From contig CAYNHT010000002.1 in the NCBI GenBank assembly GCA_964397485.1, forward strand, positions 158,061 to 222,060: a stretch of DNA of 64,000 nucleotides, written 5' to 3'. The notes beneath the pieces were generated by a model, which was given only the letters and a program-made list of their open reading frames with translations, had not been told where the DNA came from and searched no databases. This stretch comes from an uncultured Muribaculaceae bacterium. GTDB lineage: Bacteria; Bacillota_I; Bacilli_A; RF39; UBA660. The translations under genes were made by a program, and so were the position numbers. Of this stretch, positions 3,313 through 64,000 are shown piece by piece. How positions within the stretch are numbered: the first letter of the stretch is position 1; every line of letters begins with the position of its first letter.

Positions 3313-3621
3313 ATGAACTTTAAAACTGGAGATAAAGTTGTTGTTATTGCTGGTAAAGATCGCGGGAAAGAAGGAAAAATAACAAAAATACTAAGAGCTG
3401 AAAATAAAGTTATAGTCGAATCAGTTAATGTTATTAAAAAACATGTAAAACCGAATGGGCAAACTGCTGGTAGTATTGTTGAAATGGAAGCACCTATTGA
3501 TGCATCTAATGTTATGATTTTAGATCCTAAGACGAAAAAAAGAACCAGAATAGGACATACTGTTGATAAAAAAGGTAACAAAATTAGAATCGCAAAGAAA
3601 TCTAATGAAAATCTTGATTAA
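3313..3621 (+). CDS. rplX: 50S ribosomal protein L24
   Basis: [23 protein letters not shown] (KOW motif). ATG 3313 follows SD ggaggg at 3301-3306; the track start at 3295 is too early. Confidence 0.94.
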
Positions 3622-11933: not shown

Positions 11934-12686
11934 ATGAAAGCATTAATAACAGGAGCAAGTTCTGGAATTGGAAAAGATATGGCAAGAATTTTAAGTAGTA
12001 GAGGTTACGATTTAATATTAGTTGCAAGAGATAAAGAAAAGTTAGAAAAATTAAAAAAAGAGTTAACTACAGAAGTACAAATAATAAGTATGGATATTTC
12101 AAGTACCTTTAACTGTATGAAATTATATAATAGAGTAAAAAAAGAAGATATTGATATATTAGTAAATAATGCAGGTTTTGGAGTTTATGGGAAATTTGAT
12201 GAGACTAGTCTAGATAAAGAACTTGATATGATTGATTTAAATATTAAGGCTGTTCATACTTTGACGAAAATGTTTTTAAAAGATTTTAAAGAAAAAAATA
12301 AAGGTTATATTTTGAATGTATCATCTGCAGCTGCATTTTTACCAAGGCCTTTAATGGCAGGATATTATGCGAGTAAAGCTTATGTTTTAAGACTTACAGA
12401 AGCAATATATGAAGAACTTAGACAAGATAATAGTAGTGTATACGTTGGAGCATTATGTCCAGGTCCAGTTAATACAAATTTTAATAATGTGGCAGGAGTT
12501 AAATTTTCGGTAGAAGCTTTGGAAAGTTATGATGTTGCATCCTATGCTGTTAAAAAGATGTTTGAGCGTGAAATGATTATAATACCAGGAAAAATGATGA
12601 AATTTAATATTTTCATGAACAAATTCATTCCGAAAAAGGCATTGTTAAAAATGGCGTATGGAATTCAAAAAAAGAAGGACCAATAA
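11934..12686 (+). CDS. Short-chain dehydrogenase/reductase (SDR) family oxidoreductase
   Basis: TGASSGIGKDMA (TGxxxGxG), NNAG and YYASKAYV (YxxxK) motifs. Confidence 0.85.
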   Translation: MKALITGASSGIGKDMARILSSRGYDLILVARDKEKLEKLKKELTTEVQIISMDISSTFNCMKLYNRVKKEDIDILVNNAGFGVYGKFDETSLDKELDMIDLNIKAVHTLTKMFLKDFKEKNKGYILNVSSAAAFLPRPLMAGYYASKAYVLRLTEAIYEELRQDNSSVYVGALCPGPVNTNFNNVAGVKFSVEALESYDVASYAVKKMFEREMIIIPGKMMKFNIFMNKFIPKKALLKMAYGIQKKKDQ

Positions 12687-13288
12687 TGACAAAATATATT
12701 GATGTTACTAATACATATATAGATGCAAGTGTAGAAATCGGTGAAAATACAATTATATATCCAAACGTAATGATTAAAGGAAAATCTAAAATTGGTGATA
12801 ATTGTATTATATACATGGGATGTTATATAGAGGATTCCACTATTGGTGATAATAACACTATATATAATTCACACATCAGTAAAAGTAATATAGGAAACAA
12901 TAATGAAATTGGTCCATATGCTAATATTAGAGAAAATAATAATATTAGAAATAATATAAAAATAGGGTCTTTTGTTGAATTGAAAAATTGTGATATAGAA
13001 GAATATACTAGGATACCCCATATTTCTTATTTAGGGGATACTACAGTGGGTAAAAGGGTAAATGTTGGATGTGGAACCACAACTGCTAATTTTGATGGTG
13101 AAAATAAGCAAAAAACAATAATCAAGGATGATGTTTTTGTGGGATGTAATACAACTATAATAGCTCCAGTTATCCTAGAAAAAAACAGTGTAGTTGCTGC
13201 AGGTTCAACTATCACTGAGGATGTAAATGAAAATTCACTTGCTATAGCTAGAAGTAGACAGATTACAAAAGAAGACTATTATGATTAG
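12686..13288 (+). CDS. Left-handed beta-helix acetyltransferase resembling only the C-terminal domain of GlmU
   Basis: Hexapeptide repeats throughout. It is collinear with my recollection of the GlmU acetyltransferase half (YIDASVEIGENTIIYPNV...HISYLGDTTVGKRVNVGCGTTTANFDGENKQKTIIKDDVFVGCNT...). There is no uridylyltransferase domain. Its ATG overlaps the SDR stop (TAATG). Confidence 0.75.
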   Translation: MTKYIDVTNTYIDASVEIGENTIIYPNVMIKGKSKIGDNCIIYMGCYIEDSTIGDNNTIYNSHISKSNIGNNNEIGPYANIRENNNIRNNIKIGSFVELKNCDIEEYTRIPHISYLGDTTVGKRVNVGCGTTTANFDGENKQKTIIKDDVFVGCNTTIIAPVILEKNSVVAAGSTITEDVNENSLAIARSRQITKEDYYD

Positions 13289-13312
13289 AAACACTTATAA
13301 GGTGTTTTTTTA
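13289..13312 (+). terminator. Intrinsic terminator
   Basis: Stem aaacac/gtgttt, 7-nt loop, then a T run immediately after the stop at 13288. Confidence 0.7.
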
Positions 13313-13316
13313 GTGA

Positions 13317-13345
13317 TTGACAATATTTATATTATATGTTAAACT
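13317..13345 (+). promoter_or_regulatory. SigA-type promoter for the pilin-leader GH18 gene
   Basis: TTGACA (13317-13322), 17-nt spacer containing TG, then TAAACT (13340-13345). Confidence 0.6.
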
Positions 13346-13401
13346 CACTAGTGTAAATAACAATAAAAATATTGTTTTTTTTTAGGAAGAAGGAATTAAG
13401 T

Positions 13402-15375
13402 TTGAAAAAAGGGTTCACATTGATTGAGTTACTAGCAGTAATAGTTATATTGGCTATTTTAGCACTAATTGCCATACCAATTATTAATAATGTTATATTA
13501 GGTGCTAAAAAGAATGCTTTTAGAGTAAGTGCTTCTTATATTCTTGACGCAGCAGATTATTATTTTTTTACTCATGATGAAATAAATAATAATGATTTTA
13601 TTAAATTAGATATAGGCAAAAATGATGATGTTAAAATTCAATTTAAAGGATCTCGACCTGATAATGGGCAAGTACTTAGAGATAGTGATGGAAACGTTAG
13701 TCTGTATATGTATAGCAAGGACTTAAAGGCATGTGTTATCAAAGATTATTATAATGATGATATAATTTTACATGAAAATGTAACGGAGGATATATGTAAA
13801 AAAGTATTAGAAAAACCATTGATATTATCTGATATAGTTAAAATAGGAGATTATGTCAATTATGAAGCAGGGATATGGAATGAAAATAAACCTTACGGGG
13901 ATATAATTTCGTTTGGAGAATTTGGGGGATACCAATCTGGTATGAGTAGAAATCAAGGTGTGGCTTGTGAAAATAATGGATCAATTGTTAATGAGGCATA
14001 TGGATGGAGAGTCATTGATGTTGATCAGTCAACAGGTGCTGTATCGTTAGTTCATGCAGGGACACCAGAATGTTATAGAAATGAATGGGGAAGAAATACA
14101 GAATCAGTAGATATTTTAAAAAACCGTAATTATAGTATTTATGTTGATAGCAAATATGCAAAATCAGCAACTATTTTCACAAAAGAAATGGCTGAAAAAG
14201 TGTATGGTTCAATAATAGAGGCTGGTGCTGGCTTTTATGATTTAGAACATGATGTTTTAAAATCATATTCACGTTATTGGTTTCCAACGCCACATGGAGA
14301 TAATAATCTTATGTATGTTCAACCTGGGGGATATGTTGGCAGCATGGGTTCATACACATATGGAATAAGACCGGTGGTAATTTTAAAAGAGAATCTTCTA
14401 ATAACAGACGGAACGGGAACTATCAACAATGGATACAAAATTGAAACTAAGTTTACGGCGAAATCAGCAATTGAAAATGAGGGGTTATTAACAGGCTATT
14501 GGGAAAATTGGAATGGTGTATCAAATATAGAATTATCTAAAGTTCCATATTCCTATGATATAATTGCTTTAGCATTTGGATTGACAAAAGATGGTTCTTT
14601 AAAAGGTACGGTGGACTTTAGTTTAGATCAATATTTATCTAATCATTTAGATGGATACACAGGGCAAGATTTAAAAGATGATATTAGGGTCCTTCAAATG
14701 AGAGGTAAGAAAGTAGTTTTGTCTATTGGTGGAGCTACAGGTAACGTTATTGTAGATGATGAGCAATCAACTGATAATTTTGTTAATAGTGTTATGAATC
14801 TAATTAATGAGTACAAATTTGATGGAATTGATATTAATCTTGAAAACGGTATTTATCCAACTTTTCTAGCAAACGCATTAACTAGAATTTCTAATAATAT
14901 TGGTCCCAATTTTATTTTGACACTTGCTCCTCAAACTGTTGATTTCAAAGTGAATGGTTCAGGTCAAGTATCAGGTGCATATTATGATTTAATATCACAA
15001 ATCAAAGAAATAGTGACAATAGTTAATATTCAATTGTATAATTCAGGTGATCAATATGGCTTAGATGGTAATATTTATTATCCGGGTACAGTAGATTTTA
15101 TCACCTCCCTTACTACAATACTGCTTGAGAATGGATTAGAACAATCTCAAGTGGGTATAGGAACAAACTATAATTCTACTAAAACCGGATACATGGAACC
15201 AGAATATATAATAGATGCATATAATTCTTTAAAATTGGGCGGAACTACACTGGGCGGTACTTATGATATACCAAATCAATATCCAAATTTAGGTGGTTTT
15301 ATGATATGGTCAATAAATGGTGATCACAGTATTGGTAATAAATTCAGTGATGCATATATAACAGTATTAAAATAA
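13402..15375 (+). CDS. Prepilin-type N-terminal cleavage/methylation domain protein with C-terminal GH18 glycoside hydrolase domain
   Basis: TTG 13402 lies 7 nt after SD aggaagaagga and gives MKKG|FTLIELLAVIVILAILALIAIP, a class III signal peptide with Glu+5. The C-terminal ~290 aa carry GYWENWNG, FDGIDINLE (GH18 catalytic motif) and MIWSINGD. Confidence 0.85.
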   Translation: MKKGFTLIELLAVIVILAILALIAIPIINNVILGAKKNAFRVSASYILDAADYYFFTHDEINNNDFIKLDIGKNDDVKIQFKGSRPDNGQVLRDSDGNVSLYMYSKDLKACVIKDYYNDDIILHENVTEDICKKVLEKPLILSDIVKIGDYVNYEAGIWNENKPYGDIISFGEFGGYQSGMSRNQGVACENNGSIVNEAYGWRVIDVDQSTGAVSLVHAGTPECYRNEWGRNTESVDILKNRNYSIYVDSKYAKSATIFTKEMAEKVYGSIIEAGAGFYDLEHDVLKSYSRYWFPTPHGDNNLMYVQPGGYVGSMGSYTYGIRPVVILKENLLITDGTGTINNGYKIETKFTAKSAIENEGLLTGYWENWNGVSNIELSKVPYSYDIIALAFGLTKDGSLKGTVDFSLDQYLSNHLDGYTGQDLKDDIRVLQMRGKKVVLSIGGATGNVIVDDEQSTDNFVNSVMNLINEYKFDGIDINLENGIYPTFLANALTRISNNIGPNFILTLAPQTVDFKVNGSGQVSGAYYDLISQIKEIVTIVNIQLYNSGDQYGLDGNIYYPGTVDFITSLTTILLENGLEQSQVGIGTNYNSTKTGYMEPEYIIDAYNSLKLGGTTLGGTYDIPNQYPNLGGFMIWSINGDHSIGNKFSDAYITVLK

Positions 15376-15429
15376 GTGGAAAAGAGGTATAATTATTATC
15401 ATTTTACTTCTTTTTTATTGGCATAAAAG

Positions 15430-28413: not shown

Positions 28414-28908
28414 ATGACAGTGATTGCATCGTATGTAACGATTTTTTTAATTAAATTTATAGGTGGAGGCCTTGCTAATTATAGATTAATCATGATGAAA
28501 GAAGGTAATAGAATAGGAGTTTCTGTACTTACTATTTTTACGAGTCTATCTTGGATTTTAGCAATGGGGTTAGTAGTTGATAGTATAAACGAAGACATCT
28601 TTGTGGTAATTCCTTTTTTATTAGCTGTTGTTGGTGGTAATTATTTTGGTATGTATATAAACAATAAAATAAAAATAGGTCACGTATTAACGACTGTTAT
28701 AATTAACAATGATGAACTTGATTTAATAAAAAAATTGAAAGAGTTAAATTTTGATATTAAGGTCTTCAAAGCAACTGGGAAGGATAATGAAAAAAAAGTA
28801 GTTTTAATTAAAACTAGAACAAGTGAACATAAAACGTTAATCCAAACAATGAAAGATCTTAATGCTAATAAATTTATAATAAACGAAAAAATAGAGGAGG
28901 TATTCTAA
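28414..28908 (+). CDS. UPF0316-like membrane protein (DUF5698+DUF2179 architecture), paralog 1
   Basis: Three N-terminal hydrophobic helices plus a ~70-aa soluble C-terminal domain. This is the most divergent of the three tandem copies. Confidence 0.65.
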   Translation: MTVIASYVTIFLIKFIGGGLANYRLIMMKEGNRIGVSVLTIFTSLSWILAMGLVVDSINEDIFVVIPFLLAVVGGNYFGMYINNKIKIGHVLTTVIINNDELDLIKKLKELNFDIKVFKATGKDNEKKVVLIKTRTSEHKTLIQTMKDLNANKFIINEKIEEVF

Positions 28909-29408
28909 TGGATATATATTTATATTTATTTATATTTTCTCTGAAAATTTTAGAGGTAGGAATTTATTCGATTAGAATGGTACTTCTTACCTCTGGAGAA
29001 AAATATAAATCTTCATTATTCAGTTTTTTTGAAGTTGTTGTATGGGCTTTTGGAACTGGTATGGTAGCTAAATTGATTTTTGAAGATCTATTTATATTAT
29101 TTCCATATTTGTTAGGTGGATTAATAGGTGCTTTTTTAGGAATGACAATACAAGAGTTTATATCTAAAAGAGATACAATTGTAATTACTTTTATTAATAT
29201 AGACAACTTCAATGAAATAACAAGTTCTCTTAGAAAAAATAAATATGGTTTGACTATTTTAGAATGTGAAGAAGGAGAAAAAATGTTGCTTGTAGCGACT
29301 AAGAAAAATCGAATTTCTAATCTAAGGAAAATCATAAAGAGAATTGATAAAGACTCTACAATTATAACAAATGCAGCTGGGGATACAGTTGGAGGTTATA
29401 TATACTAG
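28908..29408 (+). CDS. UPF0316-like membrane protein, paralog 2
   Basis: Same architecture; the C-terminus ...GDTVGGYIY resembles B. subtilis YebE-type UPF0316 (from memory). The start overlaps the upstream stop (TAATG). Confidence 0.7.
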   Translation: MDIYLYLFIFSLKILEVGIYSIRMVLLTSGEKYKSSLFSFFEVVVWAFGTGMVAKLIFEDLFILFPYLLGGLIGAFLGMTIQEFISKRDTIVITFINIDNFNEITSSLRKNKYGLTILECEEGEKMLLVATKKNRISNLRKIIKRIDKDSTIITNAAGDTVGGYIY

Positions 29409-29422
29409 GAAGGTGATAATAA

Positions 29423-29926
29423 ATGATTTATTTTTTAATCTTTTTTCAGAAAATAATTGAAAATGCATTAAGTTCTTTTAGAGCAATTGTTTATACTGCT
29501 GGTCATAAGCATATAGGCGCCCTTCTTATAGCTATTAATACTGTTTTTTGGTTGTATATAGTTACAATCATTATTCATGATCTAACTGACGATCCAATTA
29601 AAGTTTTAATTTACGCATTAGGACAATTTTTTGGAGTCTATATAGGTATGGTTATTGAAAAAAGAATGGCAATTGGGAAATCATTACTGTATGTAATATT
29701 AGGAAAAGAAAACGAAGAGAACGTTACTCAAGAGTTAAGGGAAAAGGGGTATGGAGTTACCTGCATTGAAGCAAAAGGTTATGATGATAATGTAAAGAGT
29801 TTGCTTCTTATAGTTTGTAAAAGAAAAAATAAAGATACTATTCGAGATATAATAAAAAAATTCGAAAGTGAAGTGGTCATAATGAGTAAAAATCCTTCTA
29901 ATTTTACTGGAGGATATGTGAATTAG
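29423..29926 (+). CDS. UPF0316-like membrane protein, paralog 3
   Basis: Same architecture (QKIIENALSSFRAIVYTAG..., C-terminus NFTGGYVN). Confidence 0.7.
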   Translation: MIYFLIFFQKIIENALSSFRAIVYTAGHKHIGALLIAINTVFWLYIVTIIIHDLTDDPIKVLIYALGQFFGVYIGMVIEKRMAIGKSLLYVILGKENEENVTQELREKGYGVTCIEAKGYDDNVKSLLLIVCKRKNKDTIRDIIKKFESEVVIMSKNPSNFTGGYVN

Positions 29927-30600: not shown

Positions 30601-32775
30601 ATGAAAAAAATCACTACAATTATTCCTATTATAACTATATTAGTTGCAATTGTATTATCGATATTTTTCTTAGACTTTAATCAATCAAAGAGATATTTAC
30701 AGTTTAATTCATATAAAAAGGAATTTATAGCAATTAATTATAATGAAGATAGAACGCTTGACAGTCTCGTGATTGATAAGATTTTACAACTTGCAGAAGA
30801 TAATGGGGTAATAATCCAGAAAATGAATTTTTCTCATAATCAACCGGATGTTAGAAATATATATATATCATTTGAGACAACTGAAGAATTATATAAATTT
30901 ATCGGTGAAAATCTTCGGCTAAAGAGACTTAATGATTATACAAATAAAAATGATGGTTTTATATCAACTTATCAGCATAATGATAAAAATCAAATTGCAA
31001 TAATTCCTGATTTAATGGAGAATAATTATTACAATTATTATACATTTGATAAACTACTATCTGATGGTGATAATCTATATGGGGAATATATTGTTTATTA
31101 CAAAGGAAATAATGATTTTGCCAAGTTTTCGAGTGACGTTAGCGAATTGTTGGGGCAAGATATTAGTTCCAATTCACACTTCAATGACCTCACAAAATAT
31201 ACAATTATAGCACTGTTAATTAGTGTTTCTATTATGTTACTATTTTATTTTATTTTTCAAATATATGATACTTATTATAAATCTCAAAAAATAGGCTGTA
31301 TGAAATTACTAGGTTATAGTGAGTCTAAAATTACCAGTTTGTTGATAAAAAAAAGAATAAAAATATATTTTTTATTCTCATTGTTCACATTATTGATTTT
31401 ATTAATTTTAATTAAAAATATAACCTTTTCAAATCTTATATTTCTATTTAATGTCAACTTTATATTAATATTATTAACTATTATAATAAATTATGTATGT
31501 GTAAAAATAATATTTGGTGGTTATAATGTTTCAAATATATTAAAAAAACAAAACATAGCTTTAAAAATAAGTAAAACTAGTTTAAAATTAAAGGTTGTAA
31601 CTACAGTATTATTCATAATAACCTTATGTATATCTTTTCAACAACTGTCACCTATCTATTCTGAGCTAAAAGTTTATAGGGATGCGAAAGAATTGTTACA
31701 ATATGGTGTGATAGCTACCTTCAATGCTGATGCTAAGGAAATATATGATTATGAAAAACATTCTGAATTATATAAATTGATTGCAAGGAATCCTGAACTA
31801 AATACATTTTATTCTAGTTTTGATAATTATGGTGTTATGAATGAGGAGGAACAAAGAAATAGTAATTTACTTGAGGAACAAGGAACCTATTTTAGATATG
31901 GATCAATTGATAAAAACTACTTAAAAAAGGAAAGTATAGTTGTGTATGATGTAAATAATCATCTGGTTGATATAGATAAAATAAATAGCACATTCTTTTT
32001 ATTTCCTAAAAGCAAATATGGAAAAATAGAAAAATTTGAAGAATTTTATAAAAAACGTAGTGCTGATGATTATATAAAATATAATATTGAAAATGATTTT
32101 GTAGCTTATATTTATGATGATCAAACTATAAATTCATATAGATTAGATTTAAAAACCAAATATGTGAGTAGCCCTATTTTAAGGGTTATTGACGAAGCCG
32201 TTAGACTATCATATATAGAAACACCACTTGGTATAAATACATTTGGAACATCGCTTGGAACAAGCTTAAAAATAGAAATTAAGAATAACAAAAAAGAAAC
32301 ATTCGAAATTTTAGAAAAAGATATAGAAAAAGCGGGTTTGAAAAATCTGATTGGATTAGATAATTTTATATCTTTTTCAGATTATTTTGAGAGCGAAATA
32401 AGACTTTCAAGAATAGTTTCTTTTGTAGCTCTAACATTAATCTCAATTATTTTCGGTGTTTACTTAATAATCTCCATGCAAATAATCTCTCTCTATATAA
32501 AAAGTGATAAGCAAAGGGTAAATGTTAAATATTTATTAGGTTATGGAAAGAAAAAAATATTTTCTATTATTGTAAATAAAAATGCAATGTATAATGTAAT
32601 TGCATTTATCATAGCTATCGTTATACTTGTTCTGACTGAACAGTTAAATATTTTATTTTATTTGATATCGATATCTGCTTTTGCTGTTATTGATTTGATT
32701 GTTTTGTTTACTATAATTAGAACATATGATTTTTCGAAAATGTATCTTCAACTAAAAGGAGGGAATTATGATTGA
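30601..32775 (+). CDS. Bacteriocin-associated 7TM / FtsX-like integral membrane protein (putative immunity-export component)
   Basis: 724 aa: an N-terminal TM helix, a large extracytoplasmic loop, a TM cluster, a second large loop and a C-terminal TM cluster. Size and topology match the family found next to lactococcin-972 genes (TIGR01654, from memory). Confidence 0.65.
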   Translation: MKKITTIIPIITILVAIVLSIFFLDFNQSKRYLQFNSYKKEFIAINYNEDRTLDSLVIDKILQLAEDNGVIIQKMNFSHNQPDVRNIYISFETTEELYKFIGENLRLKRLNDYTNKNDGFISTYQHNDKNQIAIIPDLMENNYYNYYTFDKLLSDGDNLYGEYIVYYKGNNDFAKFSSDVSELLGQDISSNSHFNDLTKYTIIALLISVSIMLLFYFIFQIYDTYYKSQKIGCMKLLGYSESKITSLLIKKRIKIYFLFSLFTLLILLILIKNITFSNLIFLFNVNFILILLTIIINYVCVKIIFGGYNVSNILKKQNIALKISKTSLKLKVVTTVLFIITLCISFQQLSPIYSELKVYRDAKELLQYGVIATFNADAKEIYDYEKHSELYKLIARNPELNTFYSSFDNYGVMNEEEQRNSNLLEEQGTYFRYGSIDKNYLKKESIVVYDVNNHLVDIDKINSTFFLFPKSKYGKIEKFEEFYKKRSADDYIKYNIENDFVAYIYDDQTINSYRLDLKTKYVSSPILRVIDEAVRLSYIETPLGINTFGTSLGTSLKIEIKNNKKETFEILEKDIEKAGLKNLIGLDNFISFSDYFESEIRLSRIVSFVALTLISIIFGVYLIISMQIISLYIKSDKQRVNVKYLLGYGKKKIFSIIVNKNAMYNVIAFIIAIVILVLTEQLNILFYLISISAFAVIDLIVLFTIIRTYDFSKMYLQLKGGNYD

Positions 32776-33397
32776 AATCAATGGATTGAACAAATCTTAT
32801 GGTGAGAAGGAAATCTTTAAAAAATTTAATTACAAAATAAATGATGCAACACTGTTGGCTATTGTTGGTAAGAGTGGAAGTGGTAAATCAACTTTGTTAA
32901 ATATTCTAGGATTATTAGATCGTGATTATCACGGTGATATATTATATAATGGCGAGAATATCGCAAAAAGAAAAGAGTCTAAAGTGACAGAGTTCATTAG
33001 ACAAAATATAAATTATTTATTTCAAAATTATGCACTAGTAGATAATGAAACGGTCGAATATAATCTCCTTCTTGCACTAGAATACGAAAAAATGTCCAAG
33101 AAAGAAAAAATTTCTAAAGTAAGTAATGCATTAAAGTTAGTAGATTTAAATGAATTTAATAATAAAAAAATTTACACGTTAAGTGGTGGTGAGCAACAGA
33201 GGGTAGCTTTAGCAAGGATTATACTAAAAAAGGGGAATATTATATTGGCTGATGAACCAACTGGGAATTTGGATTATAACAATAGCTTGAAAGTAATGAA
33301 TATACTAAAGAATTTACAACAGCAAGGAAAAACTATTGTAATTGTAACACATAATGAGAATCTTGCTTTGGAATGTGATGAAATAATTCGTTTGTAG
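32768..33397 (+). CDS. ABC transporter ATP-binding protein (MacB/LolD-like, bacteriocin-export group)
   Basis: GKSGSGKST, LSGGEQQR and IILADEPT motifs; overlaps the upstream gene by 8 nt. Confidence 0.9.
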   Translation: MIEINGLNKSYGEKEIFKKFNYKINDATLLAIVGKSGSGKSTLLNILGLLDRDYHGDILYNGENIAKRKESKVTEFIRQNINYLFQNYALVDNETVEYNLLLALEYEKMSKKEKISKVSNALKLVDLNEFNNKKIYTLSGGEQQRVALARIILKKGNIILADEPTGNLDYNNSLKVMNILKNLQQQGKTIVIVTHNENLALECDEIIRL

Positions 33398-38913: not shown

Positions 38914-41634
38914 ATGAAGTTATTTGTAAAATTAAATGTATCTATATTAATAATTCTTATATCTTTTTTTGCGATTTTTGATGTTAATAGTATTAATAAT
39001 CATACTAATACTCAATTAATTGATTTATCTTCAAATGATCCAGTAAAAGTATATCAAGCAGGAAAAGGTAAGTCTAAATATAAAAGTAATGAATTAATAA
39101 TAAATTTCAATGTTGAAGATTATAGTTATCTTGAAGACAAATATAATATAAAAGTTAATGATAAACTTGATAGTGATAATTATTTGATTGAATTTAATCC
39201 TAATGAATATACAATGGAAGAAATATTAATATTAGCTAATAAAGAACCTGGTATTGAATATGCAGAACCTAACTATGTTATGAAATTAGCATATTCACCA
39301 GTTTCTGAACAGTTTTATGATTATCTTTGGGCATTTAAAAACCCAACATACGGTATTAATATTACACCAGTTTGGGATGAAACTTTTGGACGTGATGAAG
39401 TTGTAGTAGCGATTGCTGATTCTGGTATTGATTATACCCACCCTGATTTGATATCTAATATATGGATTAATACTGAGGAAATATTAGGTAATGGTATAGA
39501 TGATGACGGTAATGGATATATAGACGATTATTACGGTTGGAATTTTTATCAAAATAATAATAATGTAATGGATTACAATGGGCATGGTACACATGTAGGG
39601 GGAATAATTGCTGCCGAAATAAATGGGGAAGGAATCGTAGGAACTGCACCTAATGTAAAAATTATGGCCTTAAAAGTTAGTGACATAGAAGGAAATGTAT
39701 ATTTAGATAAAGTTGTTTCTTCAATAAATTATGCGGTCAATAAAGGAGTTAAGATATTTAATTTTTCATTTGGAGGACCTGTCCAATATCAAGCTTTTGG
39801 CAATGCAATTGCTAACACGGATGCTTTGTTTTTATGTGCTGCAGGTAATGATGGTACTAATAACGATATTTTACCTTTCTATCCAGCAAGTTATAACTAT
39901 AATAATATTATTTCAGTTGCTGCTCATAGAGAAACAGGTGTTTTAGCGGACTTTTCTAATTATGGAATCAATTCTGTAGATGTATCTGCTCCTGGCCATA
40001 ATATTTTAAGCACCTATCCGCTATCACTCACACCAGATGGATATTATCCGTATATTTACTTTAATGGGACCTCGATGGCGGCTCCTTATGTATCTGGTTT
40101 AGCTGCTTTACTTTGGAGTCAAAACTCTAATTACAGTGTATCTGAAATACGGAATTATATTTTAAGTAATGTTAAAACGTATGGTTCATTTACAACAAAG
40201 GTATCTACAGGAGGTATTATAGATGCTTCAAAATCATATAGCGCGCTTATAGATTCACTATACGATGGTGGAAGTGGTACGATTGAAGACCCATATCTTA
40301 TCTCCAATGTGGAGCAATTTAATAATATAAGAAATAATTTAGCTGCCTCTTATAGATTAACAAGTAATTTAGATTTTACTTATGATACGACTAATGTTAA
40401 TGGTTTATTTTATAATAATGGTAAAGGTTGGTTACCAATTGGTAATAACGAAAGTAGCAGTAGTGGTTATACTGGTAATGCTTTTAATGGAAATTTTGAT
40501 GGAAATGGATATGTAATAAAGGGTTTGAATATTAATCGTCCGAGTGAATATTATTTAGGATTATTTGGTAATGTTGTTGGAATTGATACAGAGCATTCCA
40601 CGATCAAAAATCTTATCTTAGAAAACGGAAATATTAAAGGTCAAGGATATATAGGTGGATTGATTGGCTATGCACAATATGTTGATATATCAAATGTTGG
40701 GACAAATTTAAATATTATTGCATCAGACATGTATATAGGTGGGGTTGTTGGTTATATAGAGGGCAATATTAATAAATCATATAATACTGCTTTAATCGAA
40801 GCTTCTAGTAAAGCTGGTGGTATAGCCGGATCAATAATGGGTGATATTTATGATACCTTTAATTTAGGGATAATGAATAGGTATAACGATATTAATGTTA
40901 CTGATAGTGGCGGAATCGTTGGTGTATTATCTGGTAGTATGTCAAATTCATATAATTTGGGTATGTTAAGAGACAATAATTTTAAATTTTTTGTTGGACT
41001 TAATAATGGAGGAATTATTGATAATGTTTACTATTATAATCCATATAATTTAAATGAGGATATATATGGTGTACAATTGACGGAATCTGAAATATATGAA
41101 AGTGAAAGTTATATAAACTTTGATTTTGATAATGTATGGCAAATAAACATTAATAGTAAACTGCCAACATTAAGAGGAATGCCTTTTCATCAATTAACTG
41201 ATTATAATGTGGCTGATAAGTTAACTTTGAATATAAAAAAGGACCAGTCTTATAATTTAAATATCACAAATAATCCTAGCTTTAATTTAAGAAAAAATTA
41301 TGTTTACAGTAGTGATGATGAAAATATTGTTACCGTTGATAAAAATGGAAAGATTACACCTATAAAGATAGGGAATGCTGTCATAGAAATATATTCGATT
41401 GAACTGGGCGTTTCTAAATATATAGATGTTGAAGTAAAGATAGTTAAGGGTGATGTAAATAATGACGGTAATGTAACTATTACAGATTTGGTAAAGTTAA
41501 GTCGTCATCTAGCTGGATTAGAAACTATTCAAAGCAACTATTTAGAAAACGCTGATATTAATAATGATGGTAATGTAACTATTACAGATTTAGTAAAACT
41601 AAGTCGTCATCTAGCTGGATTGGAGGGAATATAA
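38914..41634 (+). CDS. Secreted subtilisin-like S8 peptidase with GLUG-type module, Big_2 domain and C-terminal type I dockerin
   Basis: Contains a signal peptide and an I9-like propeptide. Catalytic triad context AIADSGIDYTHPDL / HGTHVGGIIAA / GTSMAAPYVSG. A ~308-aa GLUG-type module spans 40267-41190, followed by an Ig-like Big_2 domain. Two Ca-binding dockerin segments DVNNDGNVTITD and DINNDGNVTITD lie at 41449-41631. Confidence 0.9.
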   Translation: MKLFVKLNVSILIILISFFAIFDVNSINNHTNTQLIDLSSNDPVKVYQAGKGKSKYKSNELIINFNVEDYSYLEDKYNIKVNDKLDSDNYLIEFNPNEYTMEEILILANKEPGIEYAEPNYVMKLAYSPVSEQFYDYLWAFKNPTYGINITPVWDETFGRDEVVVAIADSGIDYTHPDLISNIWINTEEILGNGIDDDGNGYIDDYYGWNFYQNNNNVMDYNGHGTHVGGIIAAEINGEGIVGTAPNVKIMALKVSDIEGNVYLDKVVSSINYAVNKGVKIFNFSFGGPVQYQAFGNAIANTDALFLCAAGNDGTNNDILPFYPASYNYNNIISVAAHRETGVLADFSNYGINSVDVSAPGHNILSTYPLSLTPDGYYPYIYFNGTSMAAPYVSGLAALLWSQNSNYSVSEIRNYILSNVKTYGSFTTKVSTGGIIDASKSYSALIDSLYDGGSGTIEDPYLISNVEQFNNIRNNLAASYRLTSNLDFTYDTTNVNGLFYNNGKGWLPIGNNESSSSGYTGNAFNGNFDGNGYVIKGLNINRPSEYYLGLFGNVVGIDTEHSTIKNLILENGNIKGQGYIGGLIGYAQYVDISNVGTNLNIIASDMYIGGVVGYIEGNINKSYNTALIEASSKAGGIAGSIMGDIYDTFNLGIMNRYNDINVTDSGGIVGVLSGSMSNSYNLGMLRDNNFKFFVGLNNGGIIDNVYYYNPYNLNEDIYGVQLTESEIYESESYINFDFDNVWQININSKLPTLRGMPFHQLTDYNVADKLTLNIKKDQSYNLNITNNPSFNLRKNYVYSSDDENIVTVDKNGKITPIKIGNAVIEIYSIELGVSKYIDVEVKIVKGDVNNDGNVTITDLVKLSRHLAGLETIQSNYLENADINNDGNVTITDLVKLSRHLAGLEGI

Positions 41635-41635
41635 A

Positions 41636-43240
41636 ATGAAAAAGAAATTGATTTATCTGGTACTATTAATGGGATTATTTATTGTGCTTCCTGTTAAGGC
41701 TGCCAATTTTTCAACATCAATAAGTGGGGTTTCTAATATAGCCTTAAACCAACAATTTACTGTTACTTTTAATGTTGTTAATGGAACAAATATTATGGGG
41801 GTTGATGGATTATTAAATTATGATTCTTCCAAACTTACATTAGTGTCATCATCTGGATTAAATGGTTTTACTGTTGTAACGGGAAGTAGGTTAGTTGCAT
41901 ATAAGACAACGGGAAAATCTGGAACTTTTGGGTTTGCTACTTTTACTTTTAAAGCAAAAAGTACTTTTACTGCAGGGCAAAGTACAACAATCTCTTTATC
42001 TGATGTTAAAGGATCTAATGGTAGTGATATAAGTGGTAGTAGTAGTGTAAAAACGATTAAAGTTGTCTCTAGTAATAATAATCTATCATCTTTAAAAATT
42101 GATGGAACAACTATTAGTGGTTTTAGTCCTACCAAGACTTCTTATAGTATAACTGTACCTAACAATAAAAATTCTGTTGCAATTAGTGCTGTAGCTGAAA
42201 GTTCTAGCAGTAACATTATTGGAACTGGCAATAAAAATTTAAATGTTTATGCAAATACTTATAACATTGTAGTTACAGCGGAAAATGGTTCTAAAAAAAC
42301 ATATACTATAACTATATATCGCAAAGATGCGGATGGTTTAACTTCCCCAAAGTCTACAGATAGTACATTGAAAAATTTAAAAGTAACTAATTATGATATT
42401 AAATTTAATTCATCAACAACAAAGTATGACTTGAAAGTAGATAATAATATAACAAATTTAAAGGTTGAAGCATTGTCAAATAGTGATAAAGCTAAGGTTA
42501 CTATAGATAATCCTAGTGAATTAAAAGTGGGTATTAATATTATTAAAATTACTGTACAGGCTGAGGATAATTCGGTAACTGAATATGTGATAAATGTTAC
42601 AAGAAGTGGTGAGGGCCCTACAACGACTTTAGATAAACTGATTGATATAGTAAAAACAACAACGGCAAATACTATAAATGTTGATATAAAAGATAATAAT
42701 ACTGAAATAAGTTCTGATATGTTAAATGAAATAAAAAATAGTCAGAAGCAAGTTATTATAAATCATTATAATTCTAGTGATAACATAACTTACATTTGGA
42801 AAATAAATGGTACTAAGTTGATTAATGACAAAACTATAAATACTAATATAAATTTCACTTCTCCAAATGTAGAGGCTATTAACGAATTGACTAATTATTC
42901 TAATTATCTTATATTAAATTTTGATCATTCAGGTGATTTGCCAGAAAACACAACTGTTACAATATATGTGGGCGATAAATATAAAGATGGTGATGTATTA
43001 AAATTATATTATTATTCATCAGAAGACAATAAGATAGAATTAAATCGTGATAATTTAAAGGTGGAAAATGGTTATGTAGAATTCGAACTAGAACATTGTT
43101 CTGAGTACTTATTGTCAATGGCTAATTTTACGAGAGCTAATATTGAGAGTAATACAACTATATTACTTTTGCAGATAATTCTAGTAATTGAGACAATTTT
43201 TATAGCATACTTACTAATAAAGAAAAAAATAACGGGTTAA
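41636..43240 (+). CDS. Membrane-anchored cohesin-domain protein with two cadherin-like beta-sandwich domains
   Basis: Starts 1 nt after the protease stop and has a signal peptide. The ~130-aa N-terminal domain has a cohesin-like pattern (FTVTFNVVNGTNIMGVDGLLNYDSSKLTLVS...GTFGFATFTFKAKS). Two NLSSLKIDG.../LKNLKVTN... cadherin-like modules follow, then a C-terminal TM helix plus KKKITG. Confidence 0.7.
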   Translation: MKKKLIYLVLLMGLFIVLPVKAANFSTSISGVSNIALNQQFTVTFNVVNGTNIMGVDGLLNYDSSKLTLVSSSGLNGFTVVTGSRLVAYKTTGKSGTFGFATFTFKAKSTFTAGQSTTISLSDVKGSNGSDISGSSSVKTIKVVSSNNNLSSLKIDGTTISGFSPTKTSYSITVPNNKNSVAISAVAESSSSNIIGTGNKNLNVYANTYNIVVTAENGSKKTYTITIYRKDADGLTSPKSTDSTLKNLKVTNYDIKFNSSTTKYDLKVDNNITNLKVEALSNSDKAKVTIDNPSELKVGINIIKITVQAEDNSVTEYVINVTRSGEGPTTTLDKLIDIVKTTTANTINVDIKDNNTEISSDMLNEIKNSQKQVIINHYNSSDNITYIWKINGTKLINDKTINTNINFTSPNVEAINELTNYSNYLILNFDHSGDLPENTTVTIYVGDKYKDGDVLKLYYYSSEDNKIELNRDNLKVENGYVEFELEHCSEYLLSMANFTRANIESNTTILLLQIILVIETIFIAYLLIKKKITG

Positions 43241-48225: not shown

Positions 48226-51200
48226 ATGAATAAAAAGGGATTTACTTTAATAGAACTATTAGCGGTAATAGTTATTATTGCAATTATTTTGAGTGTTACT
48301 GTCCCATTAGTAATGGGGATTATAGATGATGTAAGAGATGCCGCAAACGAGAGACAAAAAGAATTAATAGTAAAAGCAGCGGAAAAATATGTTTTTTTCA
48401 ATAGTGATGTTTTAGCTGATATATCTGAAATAGACTCATTTACTTATATAACAATTGGTGATTTAATAGATGCTAATTTAATTGGTAGTAATTTAAGAAA
48501 TATAAAAAAGAATACTATTTTAAATAAAGATCAAAAGATAAAAATTATAAATAGAGGAAATGGTTATTATAGTTATTATTTTGTTGATGAAGATGGAGAA
48601 GAAGAGGAAATTATTATTATTGATAATGGATCTAATGGCGTAATTGATCCTGATTATACCTATAGTTATGGTAGTGGAACATCTGAAGACCCATATCAAA
48701 TAAGAGGTTTAACAGATTTAAACCATGTGCGCTTAGAAGAAAGTGCTAATTATGTTTTAATGACTAATATTAATGCTGAATATACAAGAGATTGGAATGA
48801 TGGTGCAGGTTGGGTTCCGTTAGGAAATTCTGTTAGTAATTATAATGGGATTATAGATGGAAATGGATATACAATAAGTAATTTATATATAAATCGACCT
48901 ACAGATGACTATCAAGGATTTATTGGTTATCTTGGGATTGATTCAAGTATTTCTAATATAAATTTAATTAACGTTGATATAACAGGGAAAAATTATGTAG
49001 GGGCGGTTTCTGGATATATAAACAGGTCAAACATTGATAGCGTTACAGTTGCTGGTAATGTATCGGGCTACAATAACATTGGAATGGTTTCAGGGTATTC
49101 AATGCTATCGGATGTATCAAATGTGGTAACGTTAGGTTCAGTAACAGGAAATAGTAATGTAGGAGCAATAAATGGTTATCAAAATAGAATGAATTTATCA
49201 AATAGTTATTCATTTGCCGATGTAACAGGAAGTAGTAATGTAGGGGGACTTGTTGGATATTTATATGGTTCCTCATCAAGTGCAACTGGAAATATAACAA
49301 ATTCTTATTTTTCAGGAACTGTATCTGGTAGTAGTTATGTAGAACCTATAGTAGGAAGGTTTAATAGTAATGTTAACATATCTAGTACATATTGGGATAC
49401 TGAAGTAACAGGAATATCTAGCGCTACTCATGGCGAAGGTTTATTAACTTTTAGGATGAAAATGGAAAGCAGTTTTATAGATTGGGACTTTAACAATGTA
49501 TGGGATATAATAGAAAATGAAACATTCCCTTATTTAAGGCATCAGGGAGGACCTTTGGACGAATATCCCGAGACTATCGATAATGGTGTAATGTTAGGTG
49601 ATGGTACAGCAGAAAATCCTTATCAAATAAGAAATTTAGCAAGCCTAGATCAAATAAGAAATGTCTCTAATGCGCACTATGTTCTTAAAAATAATATAGA
49701 TGCAAGTGATACAATAAATTGGAATGATGGTACAGGATGGCTACCAATTGGAGATAATTCCGTCAAGTTTAGTGGAGTAATAGATGGAAATGGGTATAGC
49801 ATAAATAATTTATATATAAATAGACCAACTACTGACTATCAGGGATTAGTTGGATATTTGGATACAGGTGGAGAAGTAAAAAATTTAATATTAAACGATG
49901 TTAATATCACTGCCAGAAATTATGCCGGAGGATTAGTTGGATATTTAAATGGATCATCATTGAGTAATATAGGTGTAAGCGGAACTGTCACTACTTATAA
50001 TTACGGTGGAATGATAACTGGATATGCCACTTTATCACAGATAAATAATGCCTTTAGTGTTGGTGATTTGACTGGGAATACTAACGTTGGAGGAATAAGT
50101 GGATACCAAAATCGAACTGATTTATTTAACAGTTATTCAGTAGCTAATGTAACTGGAAGTGGAACTGTTGGAGGTTTAACAGGATATTTGTTAGGTGCAA
50201 ATTCTAGTAGTCGAGCATTTATTACAAATAGTTATTATGCTGGAAAATTAGTTGGTGGTAGTTATACCGATATGATCGCAGGTAGAACGAATAGTTATAT
50301 AACAGTCACTGATACATATTGGGATGCTGAACAGGTTGGTAGAACTAGTTTGGGTGAAGGTCAAGCAATCTATACAATTGAGATGAAAAATAAAGATAGA
50401 TTCGTAAATTGGGATTTTGAAAATATTTGGGGTATCAATGAAGGTCTAACATATCCGTATTTGAAACATCAAAATGGTCCACTAACAAGCTATCCTGAAA
50501 CAACACAGGGAGGAATAACTTTAGGTACGGGGACTATTGATGATCCATATCAAGTATCTACATTGGTTGGGTTAGGTCAAATGGCTAATATAGTTAATGC
50601 GCACTATATCCTAATATCGAATATAAATGCAGGTGATACGACAAATTGGAATAATGGAACAGGATGGATACCTGTTGGTAATAATTCTGTAAATTTTATT
50701 GGATCAATTGATGGAAATGGTTATACAATAAGTAATTTATATATAAATAGACCAACTACCGATTATCAAGGGTTAGTTGGTTATCTTGGAACAAATGCAA
50801 GTGTTTCTAATTTACGATTATTAAATATTAACATTACAGGAAGAAATTATACATCTGGTTTATCAGGATATTCAAATGAAGCAGAGATAACAAATGTAGG
50901 AATAGAAGGAAATGTAAATGGTAATAATTACGTTGGGATGATTACAGGTTATTCGATGTCAACTAATATTAATCAGTCTTATAGTAATGGTGAATTGATA
51001 GGCACTTCATATCTAGGTGGAATAAGTGGATATCAAAACAGAATGAACTTAATAAATAGTTACTCACTTATTGATATAAGTGGAACATCATATGTTGGCG
51101 GATTAGTGGGATATTTAGTTGGTGGTAATTCTAGTCTTATAGGGCGAATAGAAAATTCATATTATGCAGGTAATATAACTGGAGGAAGTTATACAGATCC

Positions 51201-52347
51201 AATAGCTGGAAGAACTAATAGTTATATTAATATTACAAATACATATTGGGATGCTGAAAGTGCAAATATACCATCTTCTAGTAATGGTGAAGGTATGTTT
51301 ATTTTCCAAATGAAGAATAAAAATAGTTATGAAAATTGGGATTTTTCTAACATATGGAGTATTGGAGAAAATCAAACATATCCATATTTGAAATTTCAGG
51401 AGAATCCATTTGCTACTTATCCTGAAACAACAGCAAATAGAATAATTATGGGTAATGGTACTGTTGAAAACCCGTATCAAGTACCAACTCTTATTGGATT
51501 AAATCAAATAAGATATTTAATTAATTCTAATTATATATTGACAGCAAATATAAACGCTAATGATACATCTAGTTGGAATAATGGCGAAGGATGGATACCT
51601 ATTGGAGATAATAGTGTACAATTTAAAGGAACAATCGATGGAAATGGGTATGTTATTAATAATTTACATATAAATCGATCAACCTCTAGTTATCAGGGTC
51701 TATTTGGGTATCTAGGAGATGGAAGTAGTATCATTAATTTACACTTAAGTAATTTGAGTATTAATGGCAGAGATTACATCGGTGGGATTGCTGGATATGC
51801 AAACTTATCATCTGTTAGTAATGTATCTGTTCAAGGTGATATCAACGGTAGAAATTATCTTGGAATGATCGTAGGTTATTCTATGTACAGTAATATTGAT
51901 AAATCATATAGTAATGGCTTTGTAACTGGTGCTTCATATCTAGGAGGAATAAGTGGATATCAAAATAGATTTTATATGACAAATAGTTATTCTAGTTCTA
52001 ATATAAGTGGAAGCACTTATATTGGAGGACTAACTGGATATCTTTATAGTTCAACAAGTGCGGCTCGAGCCGAAATTATTAATTGCTACTTTGCAGGAAC
52101 AATAACCGGTGGAAGCTATACTGCTCCTATTGGCGGAAGGGTTAATAACCATACTGTCATCAGTACCTATTGGGATAAAGACATAAACGGAATTCAAAGT
52201 TCTACTAGTGGTGAAGGAAAAACTACGACTGAGATGAAAAATTTAAATACTTTTATAGATTGGGATTTTACCAATATATGGAATATTCAATCAGGCACAT
52301 CTTATCCTTTTTTAAGAGGTAATCAACAAATACCAGTGCCACAATAA
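48226..52347 (+). CDS. Giant prepilin-type N-terminal cleavage/methylation domain protein with four GLUG-type repeat modules
   Basis: MNKKG|FTLIELLAVIVIIAIILSVTVPLV (class III signal peptide, Glu+5), then a ~125-aa pilin-like head and an acidic linker (DEDGEEEE). Four homologous 309-aa modules follow, each with xDPYQI...GW(L/I/V)P(I/L/V)G...IDGNGY.I.NLYINRPT.DYQG and multiple xxVGGLxGY (GLUG) turns. Confidence 0.9.
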   Translation: MNKKGFTLIELLAVIVIIAIILSVTVPLVMGIIDDVRDAANERQKELIVKAAEKYVFFNSDVLADISEIDSFTYITIGDLIDANLIGSNLRNIKKNTILNKDQKIKIINRGNGYYSYYFVDEDGEEEEIIIIDNGSNGVIDPDYTYSYGSGTSEDPYQIRGLTDLNHVRLEESANYVLMTNINAEYTRDWNDGAGWVPLGNSVSNYNGIIDGNGYTISNLYINRPTDDYQGFIGYLGIDSSISNINLINVDITGKNYVGAVSGYINRSNIDSVTVAGNVSGYNNIGMVSGYSMLSDVSNVVTLGSVTGNSNVGAINGYQNRMNLSNSYSFADVTGSSNVGGLVGYLYGSSSSATGNITNSYFSGTVSGSSYVEPIVGRFNSNVNISSTYWDTEVTGISSATHGEGLLTFRMKMESSFIDWDFNNVWDIIENETFPYLRHQGGPLDEYPETIDNGVMLGDGTAENPYQIRNLASLDQIRNVSNAHYVLKNNIDASDTINWNDGTGWLPIGDNSVKFSGVIDGNGYSINNLYINRPTTDYQGLVGYLDTGGEVKNLILNDVNITARNYAGGLVGYLNGSSLSNIGVSGTVTTYNYGGMITGYATLSQINNAFSVGDLTGNTNVGGISGYQNRTDLFNSYSVANVTGSGTVGGLTGYLLGANSSSRAFITNSYYAGKLVGGSYTDMIAGRTNSYITVTDTYWDAEQVGRTSLGEGQAIYTIEMKNKDRFVNWDFENIWGINEGLTYPYLKHQNGPLTSYPETTQGGITLGTGTIDDPYQVSTLVGLGQMANIVNAHYILISNINAGDTTNWNNGTGWIPVGNNSVNFIGSIDGNGYTISNLYINRPTTDYQGLVGYLGTNASVSNLRLLNINITGRNYTSGLSGYSNEAEITNVGIEGNVNGNNYVGMITGYSMSTNINQSYSNGELIGTSYLGGISGYQNRMNLINSYSLIDISGTSYVGGLVGYLVGGNSSLIGRIENSYYAGNITGGSYTDPIAGRTNSYINITNTYWDAESANIPSSSNGEGMFIFQMKNKNSYENWDFSNIWSIGENQTYPYLKFQENPFATYPETTANRIIMGNGTVENPYQVPTLIGLNQIRYLINSNYILTANINANDTSSWNNGEGWIPIGDNSVQFKGTIDGNGYVINNLHINRSTSSYQGLFGYLGDGSSIINLHLSNLSINGRDYIGGIAGYANLSSVSNVSVQGDINGRNYLGMIVGYSMYSNIDKSYSNGFVTGASYLGGISGYQNRFYMTNSYSSSNISGSTYIGGLTGYLYSSTSAARAEIINCYFAGTITGGSYTAPIGGRVNNHTVISTYWDKDINGIQSSTSGEGKTTTEMKNLNTFIDWDFTNIWNIQSGTSYPFLRGNQQIPVPQ
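48670..52344 (+). repeat. Four tandem coding repeats with an exact 927-nt (309-codon) period
   Basis: The conserved Pro codon of the DPYQ motif falls at 48691, 49618, 50545 and 51472, each exactly 927 nt apart. Units start at about 48670, 49597, 50524 and 51451, and the last is 11 codons short. The copies have diverged; they are not near-identical DNA. Confidence 0.9.
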
Positions 52348-63905: not shown

Positions 63906-64000
63906 ATTATCACCCGTTGTTATTATGGTACCGAAATTAAAATTTATAACTTAAAAGTTTGCATAATTATAGGAATATGACAAAAACTATATAGGATAGG

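Follow-up and report, generated by a model that had tools for sequence, protein, structure and literature searches.

Type IV filaments are known to serve in adhesion, in motility and secretion, and in the uptake of DNA. In modular pilins an N-terminal pilin segment (IPR012902/N_methyl) is joined to at least one domain that is not specific to type IV pili (PMC8179133), as in PilB and PilC of Streptococcus sanguinis, which carry a von Willebrand factor A (vWA) module and a lectin module, respectively (PMC8179133, PMC9934059). A survey listed 1219 modular pilins in 264 architectures, predicted S74 and M26 peptidase modules among them (PMC8179133), and later papers that mention modular pilins concern adhesion or DNA capture. 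Here we describe a gene in a stretch of 64,000 nucleotides from an uncultured bacterium (contig CAYNHT010000002.1; the whole stretch is hereafter called the window), the product of which is predicted to combine a type IV pilin module, a middle module and a chitinase-type module of glycoside hydrolase family 18 (GH18). Display of this protein on a type IV filament, as a rare, low-abundance or tip subunit, is the best single reading of the data, and we give it about an even chance of being correct.

N_methyl and Glyco_hydro_18 lie on one polypeptide, which places the protein within the definition of a modular pilin, and the parallel with S. sanguinis PilB and PilC that was drawn in a first-pass annotation of the window is apt (PMC8179133). 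As in S. sanguinis, the host is a monoderm Firmicute, and the modules are proposed to add functions to a filament. In contrast to PilB and PilC, the window protein is trimodular and has a predicted glycoside hydrolase and an uncharacterised domain as cargo instead of an adhesin domain, and its gene is solitary, outside a pil locus; assembly into pili is inferred here. The catalogued enzyme-type modular pilins (S74 and M26/GLUG; PMC8179133) likewise combine a pilin with a module predicted to be catalytic or carbohydrate-active, albeit one from other enzyme families, and they are known from sequence alone.

GH18 (IPR001223) is not among the 264 architectures of the survey (PMC8179133). In line with the first-pass annotation, in which no characterised pilin with a glycosidase could be named, a full-text search gave no paper uniting prepilin, chitinase and N-terminal methylation. 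Read by their InterPro numbers, the surveyed architectures include what we take to be GH42_N (IPR013529, two proteins) and a CBM5/12 chitin-binding domain (IPR003610, one protein). We know of no catalytic glycoside hydrolase that has been characterised as a pilin subunit. The union of pilin and GH18 is a rare addition to the modular pilin concept, from an enzyme class not noted there before. Prepilin-type signals on functional, non-structural extracellular proteins, many per genome, have an archaeal parallel in the Sulfolobus 'bindosome', for which Zolghadr (2007) and Szabo (2007) reportedly described sugar-binding proteins that bear class III signal peptides and have non-pilus functions. The bindosome differs in having binding proteins as cargo, and its homology to the window protein is limited to the signal.

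The N-terminus of the window protein reads MKKG/FTLIELLAVIVILAILALIAIP (MKKG/FTLIE; the slash marks the predicted cut), with Phe at +1, Glu at +5 and Pro at +22. The class III prepilin signal proposed in the first-pass annotation scored over the curated cut-offs of both N_methyl (PF07963; residues 2-25, 28.8 bits, cut-off 21.2) and TIGR02532 (33.4 bits, cut-off 16.3), and the motif is conserved in paralogues. Thus G, F, T, L, I, E and P22 of the signal are invariant in nine paralogues with differing cargo, and Gly-1, Phe+1, Glu+5 and Pro+22 are kept across paralogues whose cargo is unrelated. Orthologues share 60-90% identity over the first 30 residues and 21-56% over the remaining pilin module. 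Prepilin processing and the packing of filaments require Gly-1 and a buried Glu+5, whereas a plain membrane anchor does not (PMC8179133, PMC10191384; established knowledge of type IV pili, T4P). Other secreted proteins of the window have ordinary Sec or lipoprotein signals, and the class III signal is therefore a specific choice.

Two AlphaFold2 models, one of the full-length protein (predicted local distance difference test, pLDDT, 82.5) and one of residues 1-352 made with a deeper alignment (pLDDT 90.9), agree on three modules. The full-length prediction, which the first-pass annotation had recommended, showed a pilin-like helix with a sheet, then the middle domain and then a triosephosphate isomerase (TIM) barrel. 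The pilin-sized segment, earlier put at about 135 residues, was modeled as residues 1-137, with a continuous helix (7-58/60) followed by four to five strands (residues 67-125) and a short helix, and with a conserved Cys111/Cys132 pair. With phmmer, N-terminal parts of solved pilins were matched, e.g. S. sanguinis PilE1 (8pfb, E = 3e-4); in the window protein these matches were confined to the N-terminal part, the best of them covering residues 5-68.

Glyco_hydro_18 (PF00704) matched residues 364-590 with 60.5 bits (cut-off 29.6), so that both hidden Markov model (HMM) searches suggested beforehand, PF07963 and PF00704, scored over cut-off. The GH18 domain, expected to be of about 290 residues, corresponds to a barrel at residues 362-657, and the three motifs quoted for it, GYWENWNG, FDGIDINLE (residues 473-481) and MIWSINGD, were all found. 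The closest match was a Streptomyces coelicolor chitinase ('chitinase A', 3ebv; phmmer E = 5.9e-67, 42% identity, Foldseek template modeling score, TM, 0.91), followed by Bacillus cereus ChiNCTU2 (PDB 3n11; 36% identity, TM 0.80) and a B. anthracis chitinase. The compact TIM barrel is common to the window protein, 3ebv and 3n11, as are the catalytic Glu and QxYN; in contrast, the two chitinases have the full DxxDxDxE motif, whereas the window protein has Asn two residues ahead of the Glu (position Glu-2) and is fused to a pilin. The 3ebv and 3n11 enzymes are ordinary Sec-secreted, soluble proteins.

The cargo had been described as a chitinase or an endo-beta-N-acetylglucosaminidase (ENGase), and the first of these identities was borne out, 3ebv and ChiNCTU2 being the best matches. 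The ENGase identity was rejected: the EndoS model (PF23916) reached 15.5 bits against a cut-off of 27, the top 24 structural matches were chitinases, and the first ENGases ranked 29 and 49. Judged by sequence and modeled fold, the GH18 module is of the chitinase type.

The middle module, for which about 240 residues had been claimed, is shorter, about 210 residues (140-348). It has invariant Cys189 and Cys224 and a C-terminal end of the form GIRPVVxLK, and the motif YTYGIRPVVILKENL cited in the first-pass annotation is present in the protein. DUF6273 (PF19789) scored 12.9-15.1 bits on it, under the cut-off of 23.5 and with the match limited to the C-terminal 50 residues, and it matched two of 15 family members (best E = 3.8e-5). 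Foldseek with the model of residues 1-352 gave no significant PDB neighbour for the middle module (best E 0.15), and a profile of the domain had no match among PDB sequences. Very weak C-type-lectin matches (probability at most 0.1) recurred in the Foldseek search and are a lead at most. The middle module is the terminal cargo in many relatives (P0016, P0019-P0023) and acts like a module in its own right, probably one of a ligand-binding type.

The full layout is rare. A word-indexed search retrieved 1047 relatives, and the order pilin, middle module and GH18 was found only in P0002-P0008 (44-68% identity); among 1.84 billion representatives clustered at 50% identity there were only two other pilin-GH18 clusters, P0002 and P0007. 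In the GTDB species set the layout occurred in four metagenome-assembled genomes (MAGs) labelled 'Bacillota bacterium' or uncultured bacterium (41-46% identity), at non-syntenic sites. The orthologues sit in differing neighbourhoods, for example with ligA on one side and a pflB-like gene (by reading of its translation) on the other (L004).

The carrier, on the other hand, is abundant. Hundreds of proteins of 350-1400 amino acids in 'Bacilli/Bacillota' MAGs have the same pilin module with varied cargo. Their N-termini are near-identical, with a KKG/FTLIELLAVIVILAIIALIA.P helix followed by the same small globular domain, and the cargo is Ig-like, Gly-rich (PF12810), LRR_5/DUF285, DUF6273, Laminin_G_3, or the middle module alone. 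The pilin-GH18 gene is not a one-off: the modular pilins to which it belongs form a large family that is specific to the lineage. Genes of this family are either solitary inserts amid housekeeping genes or form tandem arrays. Solitary copies lie in the secG/secE gap, in the spo0A/gpmI gap, and among cell-wall genes (3' of ftsW, and just 5' of genes for Mur ligase and D-Ala-D-Ala ligase). Two arrays contain four modular pilins of 340-651 amino acids (L057, 4794-11176) and five of 537-1074 amino acids (L060, 5056-19000). Their N-terminal helices are near-identical, and the 10 kb around either array contain no assembly genes. Relatives also encode classic pilins of 127 and 133 amino acids with the same N-terminus.

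The 1.49-Mb chromosome OW818670.1 of a relative has two classic small pilin genes with gap to one side and pgk to the other (L055, 6277-7084), and large modular pilins occur singly in spo0A/gpmI and secG/secE (L055, 10001-11824; L056, 10001-11620). Such a scatter of pilin genes inside housekeeping clusters is unusual.

The window itself encodes a second modular pilin (Table 1), and the modular design therefore recurs in this genome. In this protein four repeats of about 300 amino acids follow a pilin module of another, PulG-like kind; PF07963 scored 28.4 bits, GLUG 41 bits and Peptidase_M26_N 62.3 bits. Its layout, IPR012902-IPR011493, has already been catalogued (PMC8179133).

The cargo of the window protein is found on another carrier as well. 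In other organisms the cassette of middle module and GH18 (39-54% identity) follows a TasA/camelysin-like Peptidase_M73 N-terminal module, as seen in P0010-P0013 and P0130 from other metagenomes; Peptidase_M73 scored 28.8 bits in P0011 and 30.7 bits in P0012 (cut-off 22.5), and the layout of P0130 was deduced from alignment. The TasA/camelysin family is known to form fibres. That one cassette occurs on two unrelated fibre-subunit carriers argues for display on a polymer. The window protein has no Peptidase_M73 module, and its relation to TasA/camelysin of Bacillus is one of carrier swapping rather than membership. A limited literature search found no description of this swap with TasA-like modules or of the scale of the family in MAGs. 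By reading, the TasA/camelysin-like N-termini of the cassette relatives have a SipW-type signal.

A further relative, P0128 (417 amino acids, from a metagenome), has a GH18 module 54% identical to that of the window protein and a pilin-like KKG/ISLIVLVITIIVIIILA N-terminus without Glu+5, and it lacks the middle module. Its N-terminus may be a decayed pilin signal turned into a plain anchor.

Filament display is regarded as the best reading because of the invariance of Gly-1, Phe+1, Glu+5 and Pro+22, the conservation of the N-terminus, and the fact that the alternative carrier is a fibre subunit. According to this mechanism, the protein would be inserted into the membrane via its N-terminal helix and cut by a prepilin peptidase after Gly4. 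A T4P/Com-type machinery would then add it, at the tip or as a subunit of low abundance, to a type IV filament made mainly of small pilins. The glycosidase cassette would thereby be held past the cell wall, where it could bind, cut or transglycosylate polymers of N-acetylglucosamine such as chitin.

Several observations weigh against this mechanism. No gene for a prepilin peptidase, a T2SSE/PilB ATPase or a PilC platform protein was found in the window or in the 10 kb on either side, as the first-pass annotation had already stated for the window, and none adjoined about 15 related low-GC loci. The search combined Pfam on the larger open reading frames (ORFs) of the window with a motif scan, in which the T2SSE Walker A and Asp box and the A24 GGGDxK motif were sought, and the two agreed; the motif scan is valid, as it did find ATPases next to pilin genes at 13 or more loci of other lineages. 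Foldseek of the N-terminal model (residues 1-352) against PDB retrieved no solved pilin, so that the pilin fold is proposed from predicted topology and sequence without a structural match. The family, with arrays of four to five genes and solitary copies amid housekeeping genes, is plausibly too large for all members to be in one filament, and expression, cleavage and assembly of the protein are predictions from its gene. Finally, Asn479 stands where, by alignment, an Asp would stabilise the oxazolinium intermediate, and Serratia ChiA-D313N and ChiB-D142N, with Asp-to-Asn exchanges, reportedly lose much of their hydrolytic activity. As to the machinery, Bacillota commonly have ComG/ComC or Pil systems, which serves as a prior at most.

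The size of the family, and genes that are scattered or arrayed but never next to assembly genes in the loci examined, would also suit a membrane-tethered ectoenzyme that does not polymerise, whether or not its class III signal is cut, with the N-terminal helix fixing the cassette to the membrane's outer face and the pilin module serving as a general surface anchor. P0128, with KKG/ISLIV instead of a signal with Glu+5, resembles such a plain anchor, and processed pilins do reside in the membrane ahead of assembly (PMC10191384). However, strict conservation of Gly-1, Glu+5 and Pro+22, together with a predicted pilin globular domain with its Cys pair, would be needless for a plain anchor. Moreover, the peptidoglycan wall would cover a tethered enzyme and keep it away from insoluble chitin, and in other organisms a fibre subunit, instead of an anchor, carries the cassette. 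We consider tethering doubtful, albeit the main competitor to filament display.

A dip in pLDDT to about 55 at residues 131-140 of the full-length model could mark a site at which the enzyme is released, the pilin machinery serving as an export route (T4P-dependent or like a type II secretion system, T2SS) and the cassette being freed by proteolysis in a short linker near residues 133-150. In diderm bacteria the T2SS classically exports chitinases, and solved Legionella ChiA is among the structural matches of the GH18 module. T2SS cargo is, however, not itself a pilin, neither a cleavage motif nor a dedicated protease was evident, and literature searches gave no precedent. Release is for these reasons improbable.

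Regardless of localisation, the activity of the cargo is a question of its own. Glu481, on whose alignment the GH18 assignment had been made to depend, lines up with the motif Glu in 3ebv as well as in ChiNCTU2 and is invariant in 13 relatives, as are Asp477 and QxYN (Q544, Y546, N547). The Asp two residues ahead of the catalytic Glu, which in GH18 normally assists catalysis through the acetamido group of the substrate, is replaced by Asn479 to give DxxDxNxE; by alignment its counterpart in ChiNCTU2 is the residue that was exchanged for structure 3n13 (D143A). A sequencing error was rejected, as several samples yielded the identical protein, on at least 11 contigs, and the Asn recurs in relatives. 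Fold and Glu481 keep the protein in GH18, and full hydrolytic competence is uncertain as judged from the sequence.

The GH18 module might, then, be weak or dead as a hydrolase and act as a lectin or transglycosylase, making the protein an adhesive modular pilin like PilC, which would bind chitin or glycans with N-acetylglucosamine instead of degrading them. Consistent with this explanation, the motif of the window protein is DGIDINLE, Asn stands at Glu-2 in six of 12 relatives as well (Asp in the remaining six), and the first motif Asp is replaced by Asn in four of the 12. The retention of the catalytic Glu, the middle Asp and QxYN in 13 relatives speaks against it, since non-catalytic chitinase-like lectins usually lose the catalytic Glu. 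Close orthologues with the same layout have the canonical DIDIE, which suggests one function that tolerates either residue. On the other hand, the two Serratia mutants showed more transglycosylation (PMC5505975). On balance a lectin or transglycosylase seems rather unlikely, and it is plausible from the sequence that the GH18 module is active, with the kind and level of activity uncertain.

A broader proposal is that in this uncultured Bacillota lineage the pilin module would be a universal, interchangeable carrier that loads filaments with enzymes and binding modules, the cargo moving between type IV pilin and TasA-like fibres, with filaments that are catalytic besides being adhesive as the outcome. 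We put this forward as a tentative possibility. If the window protein is assembled and active, pili would gain degradation or remodelling of polysaccharides at a distance from the cell, and the gene would be a concrete, testable case of the modular pilins of enzyme type that were foreseen in 2021 on the basis of databases. If the carrier proposal is true, a pilus-borne glycosidase would in effect be a minimal apparatus for degrading polysaccharides, mounted on a fibre that can be retracted or extended. Hundreds of cargo variants and the swap of carriers suggest a general strategy of surface display in poorly known gut-associated Firmicutes, and the scheme of carrier and cargo could inspire engineered filament display.

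The pilin-GH18 gene is enclosed in an ORF at 13372..15375 (+) and yields a product of 657 amino acids when read from TTG 13402, the start chosen in the first-pass annotation. TTG 13402 is the likely start because of the Shine-Dalgarno-like run ahead of it (Table 1), public gene calls that give the identical product with the same start on at least 11 contigs (up to 324 kb), and orthologues that start with MKK(x)G. A longer version from TTG 13372 was rejected: no exact product of such length is on record, and it would have 14 instead of 4 residues ahead of the Gly.

The promoter claimed for the gene, TTGACA-17-TAAACT, is present as a sequence, but such sites are not above shuffle frequency in the AT-rich stretch around the gene (23 observed, 19.5 +/- 4.9 in shuffles), and the site taken alone is weak evidence for a promoter. 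Likewise, hairpins by U-runs stand on both flanks where terminators had been proposed, but a strict terminator scan around the gene reported none; the upstream hairpin was missed because its stem is AT-rich. The two hairpins make the claimed monocistronic gene, as a single-gene transcription unit, plausible from the sequence.

Table 1. Position in the window of the pilin-GH18 gene, its modules and flanking signals, and of the second modular pilin gene.
Feature	Position	Strand	Basis or remark
Hairpin and U-run, terminator-like boundary after the upstream hexapeptide-transferase gene	13288..13311	+	RNA fold -7.2 kcal/mol, z = -2.2 vs shuffles
Promoter-like TTGACA-17-TAAACT with TG extension	13317..13345	+	10/12 positions match
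Shine-Dalgarno-like AGGAAGAAGGAA	13384..13395	+	Sequence read; ends 6 nucleotides 5' of TTG 13402
Coding sequence, predicted trimodular pilin-GH18 protein	13402..15375	+	657 amino acids plus stop; ORF and HMM scans
Class III (prepilin) signal	13402..13479	+	Leader MKKG, predicted cut Gly4/Phe5, Glu+5, hydrophobic helix up to Pro+22
Predicted pilin module, residues 1-137	13402..13812	+	AlphaFold models, phmmer to solved pilins, common to many paralogues
Middle module, residues 140-348	13819..14445	+	Beta-rich, pLDDT about 90-97, weakly DUF6273-like
GH18 (beta/alpha)8 chitinase-like module, residues 362-657	14485..15372	+	PF00704, phmmer, Foldseek
Catalytic motif D474-G-I-D477-I-N479-L-E481	14821..14844	+	Aligned with DGVDIDLE (3ebv) and DGIDIDLE (3n11)
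Hairpin with U-rich 3' arm past the stop codon, terminator-like boundary before ecfA	15375..15424	+	-13.8 kcal/mol, z = -3.1
Second modular pilin	48226..52347	+	1373 amino acids, MNKKG/FTLIELLAVIVII, four GLUG/Peptidase_M26_N-type repeats

The window is AT-rich (29% GC) and traverses a ribosomal-protein gene cluster, in which the genes before about position 3400 were named from a shorter contig. In the usual Firmicute order ecfA lies directly 3' of rplQ. In the window three extra genes stand between rplQ and ecfA-ecfA'-ecfT-truA, namely those for a short-chain dehydrogenase and a hexapeptide-repeat transferase (both within 11934-13288, +) and the pilin-GH18 ORF. A recently acquired foreign island was rejected as an explanation, since there is no GC anomaly (0.29-0.33, with similar flanks).

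The host appears, from its genes, to be a walled spore-former, because the window encodes an Amidase_3/LysM protein and a cell-wall hydrolase, a CotZ-like spore-coat gene lies just past it, and one related genome has spo0A and small acid-soluble spore protein (SASP) genes. Mur ligases were found in related genomes. The CotZ-like gene adjoins an Agr-like quorum-sensing set of AgrB, a 40-amino-acid ORF, a histidine kinase and a LytTR regulator (L058, 2456-5281, about 5-8 kb past window position 64000).

Further along the window, 38914-43240 (+) encodes a subtilase of 906 amino acids with a fervidolysin-type prodomain, Big_2 and a C-terminal type I dockerin, followed directly 3' by a secreted protein of 534 amino acids with cadherin-like beta-sandwich domains; the two may, judging by these domains, form a surface system of the cohesin-dockerin type. 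Three tandem paralogues of 164, 166 and 167 amino acids (28414-29926, +) match DUF5698, the first of them under the Pfam cut-off, and the second and third also match DUF2179. Two large proteins, of 724 (30601-32775, +) and 688 amino acids (54961-57027, -), were without a Pfam match at E <= 0.001. The former has an N-terminal membrane helix, and its ORF overlaps the start of a gene for an ATP-binding cassette (ABC) ATPase (32768-33397).

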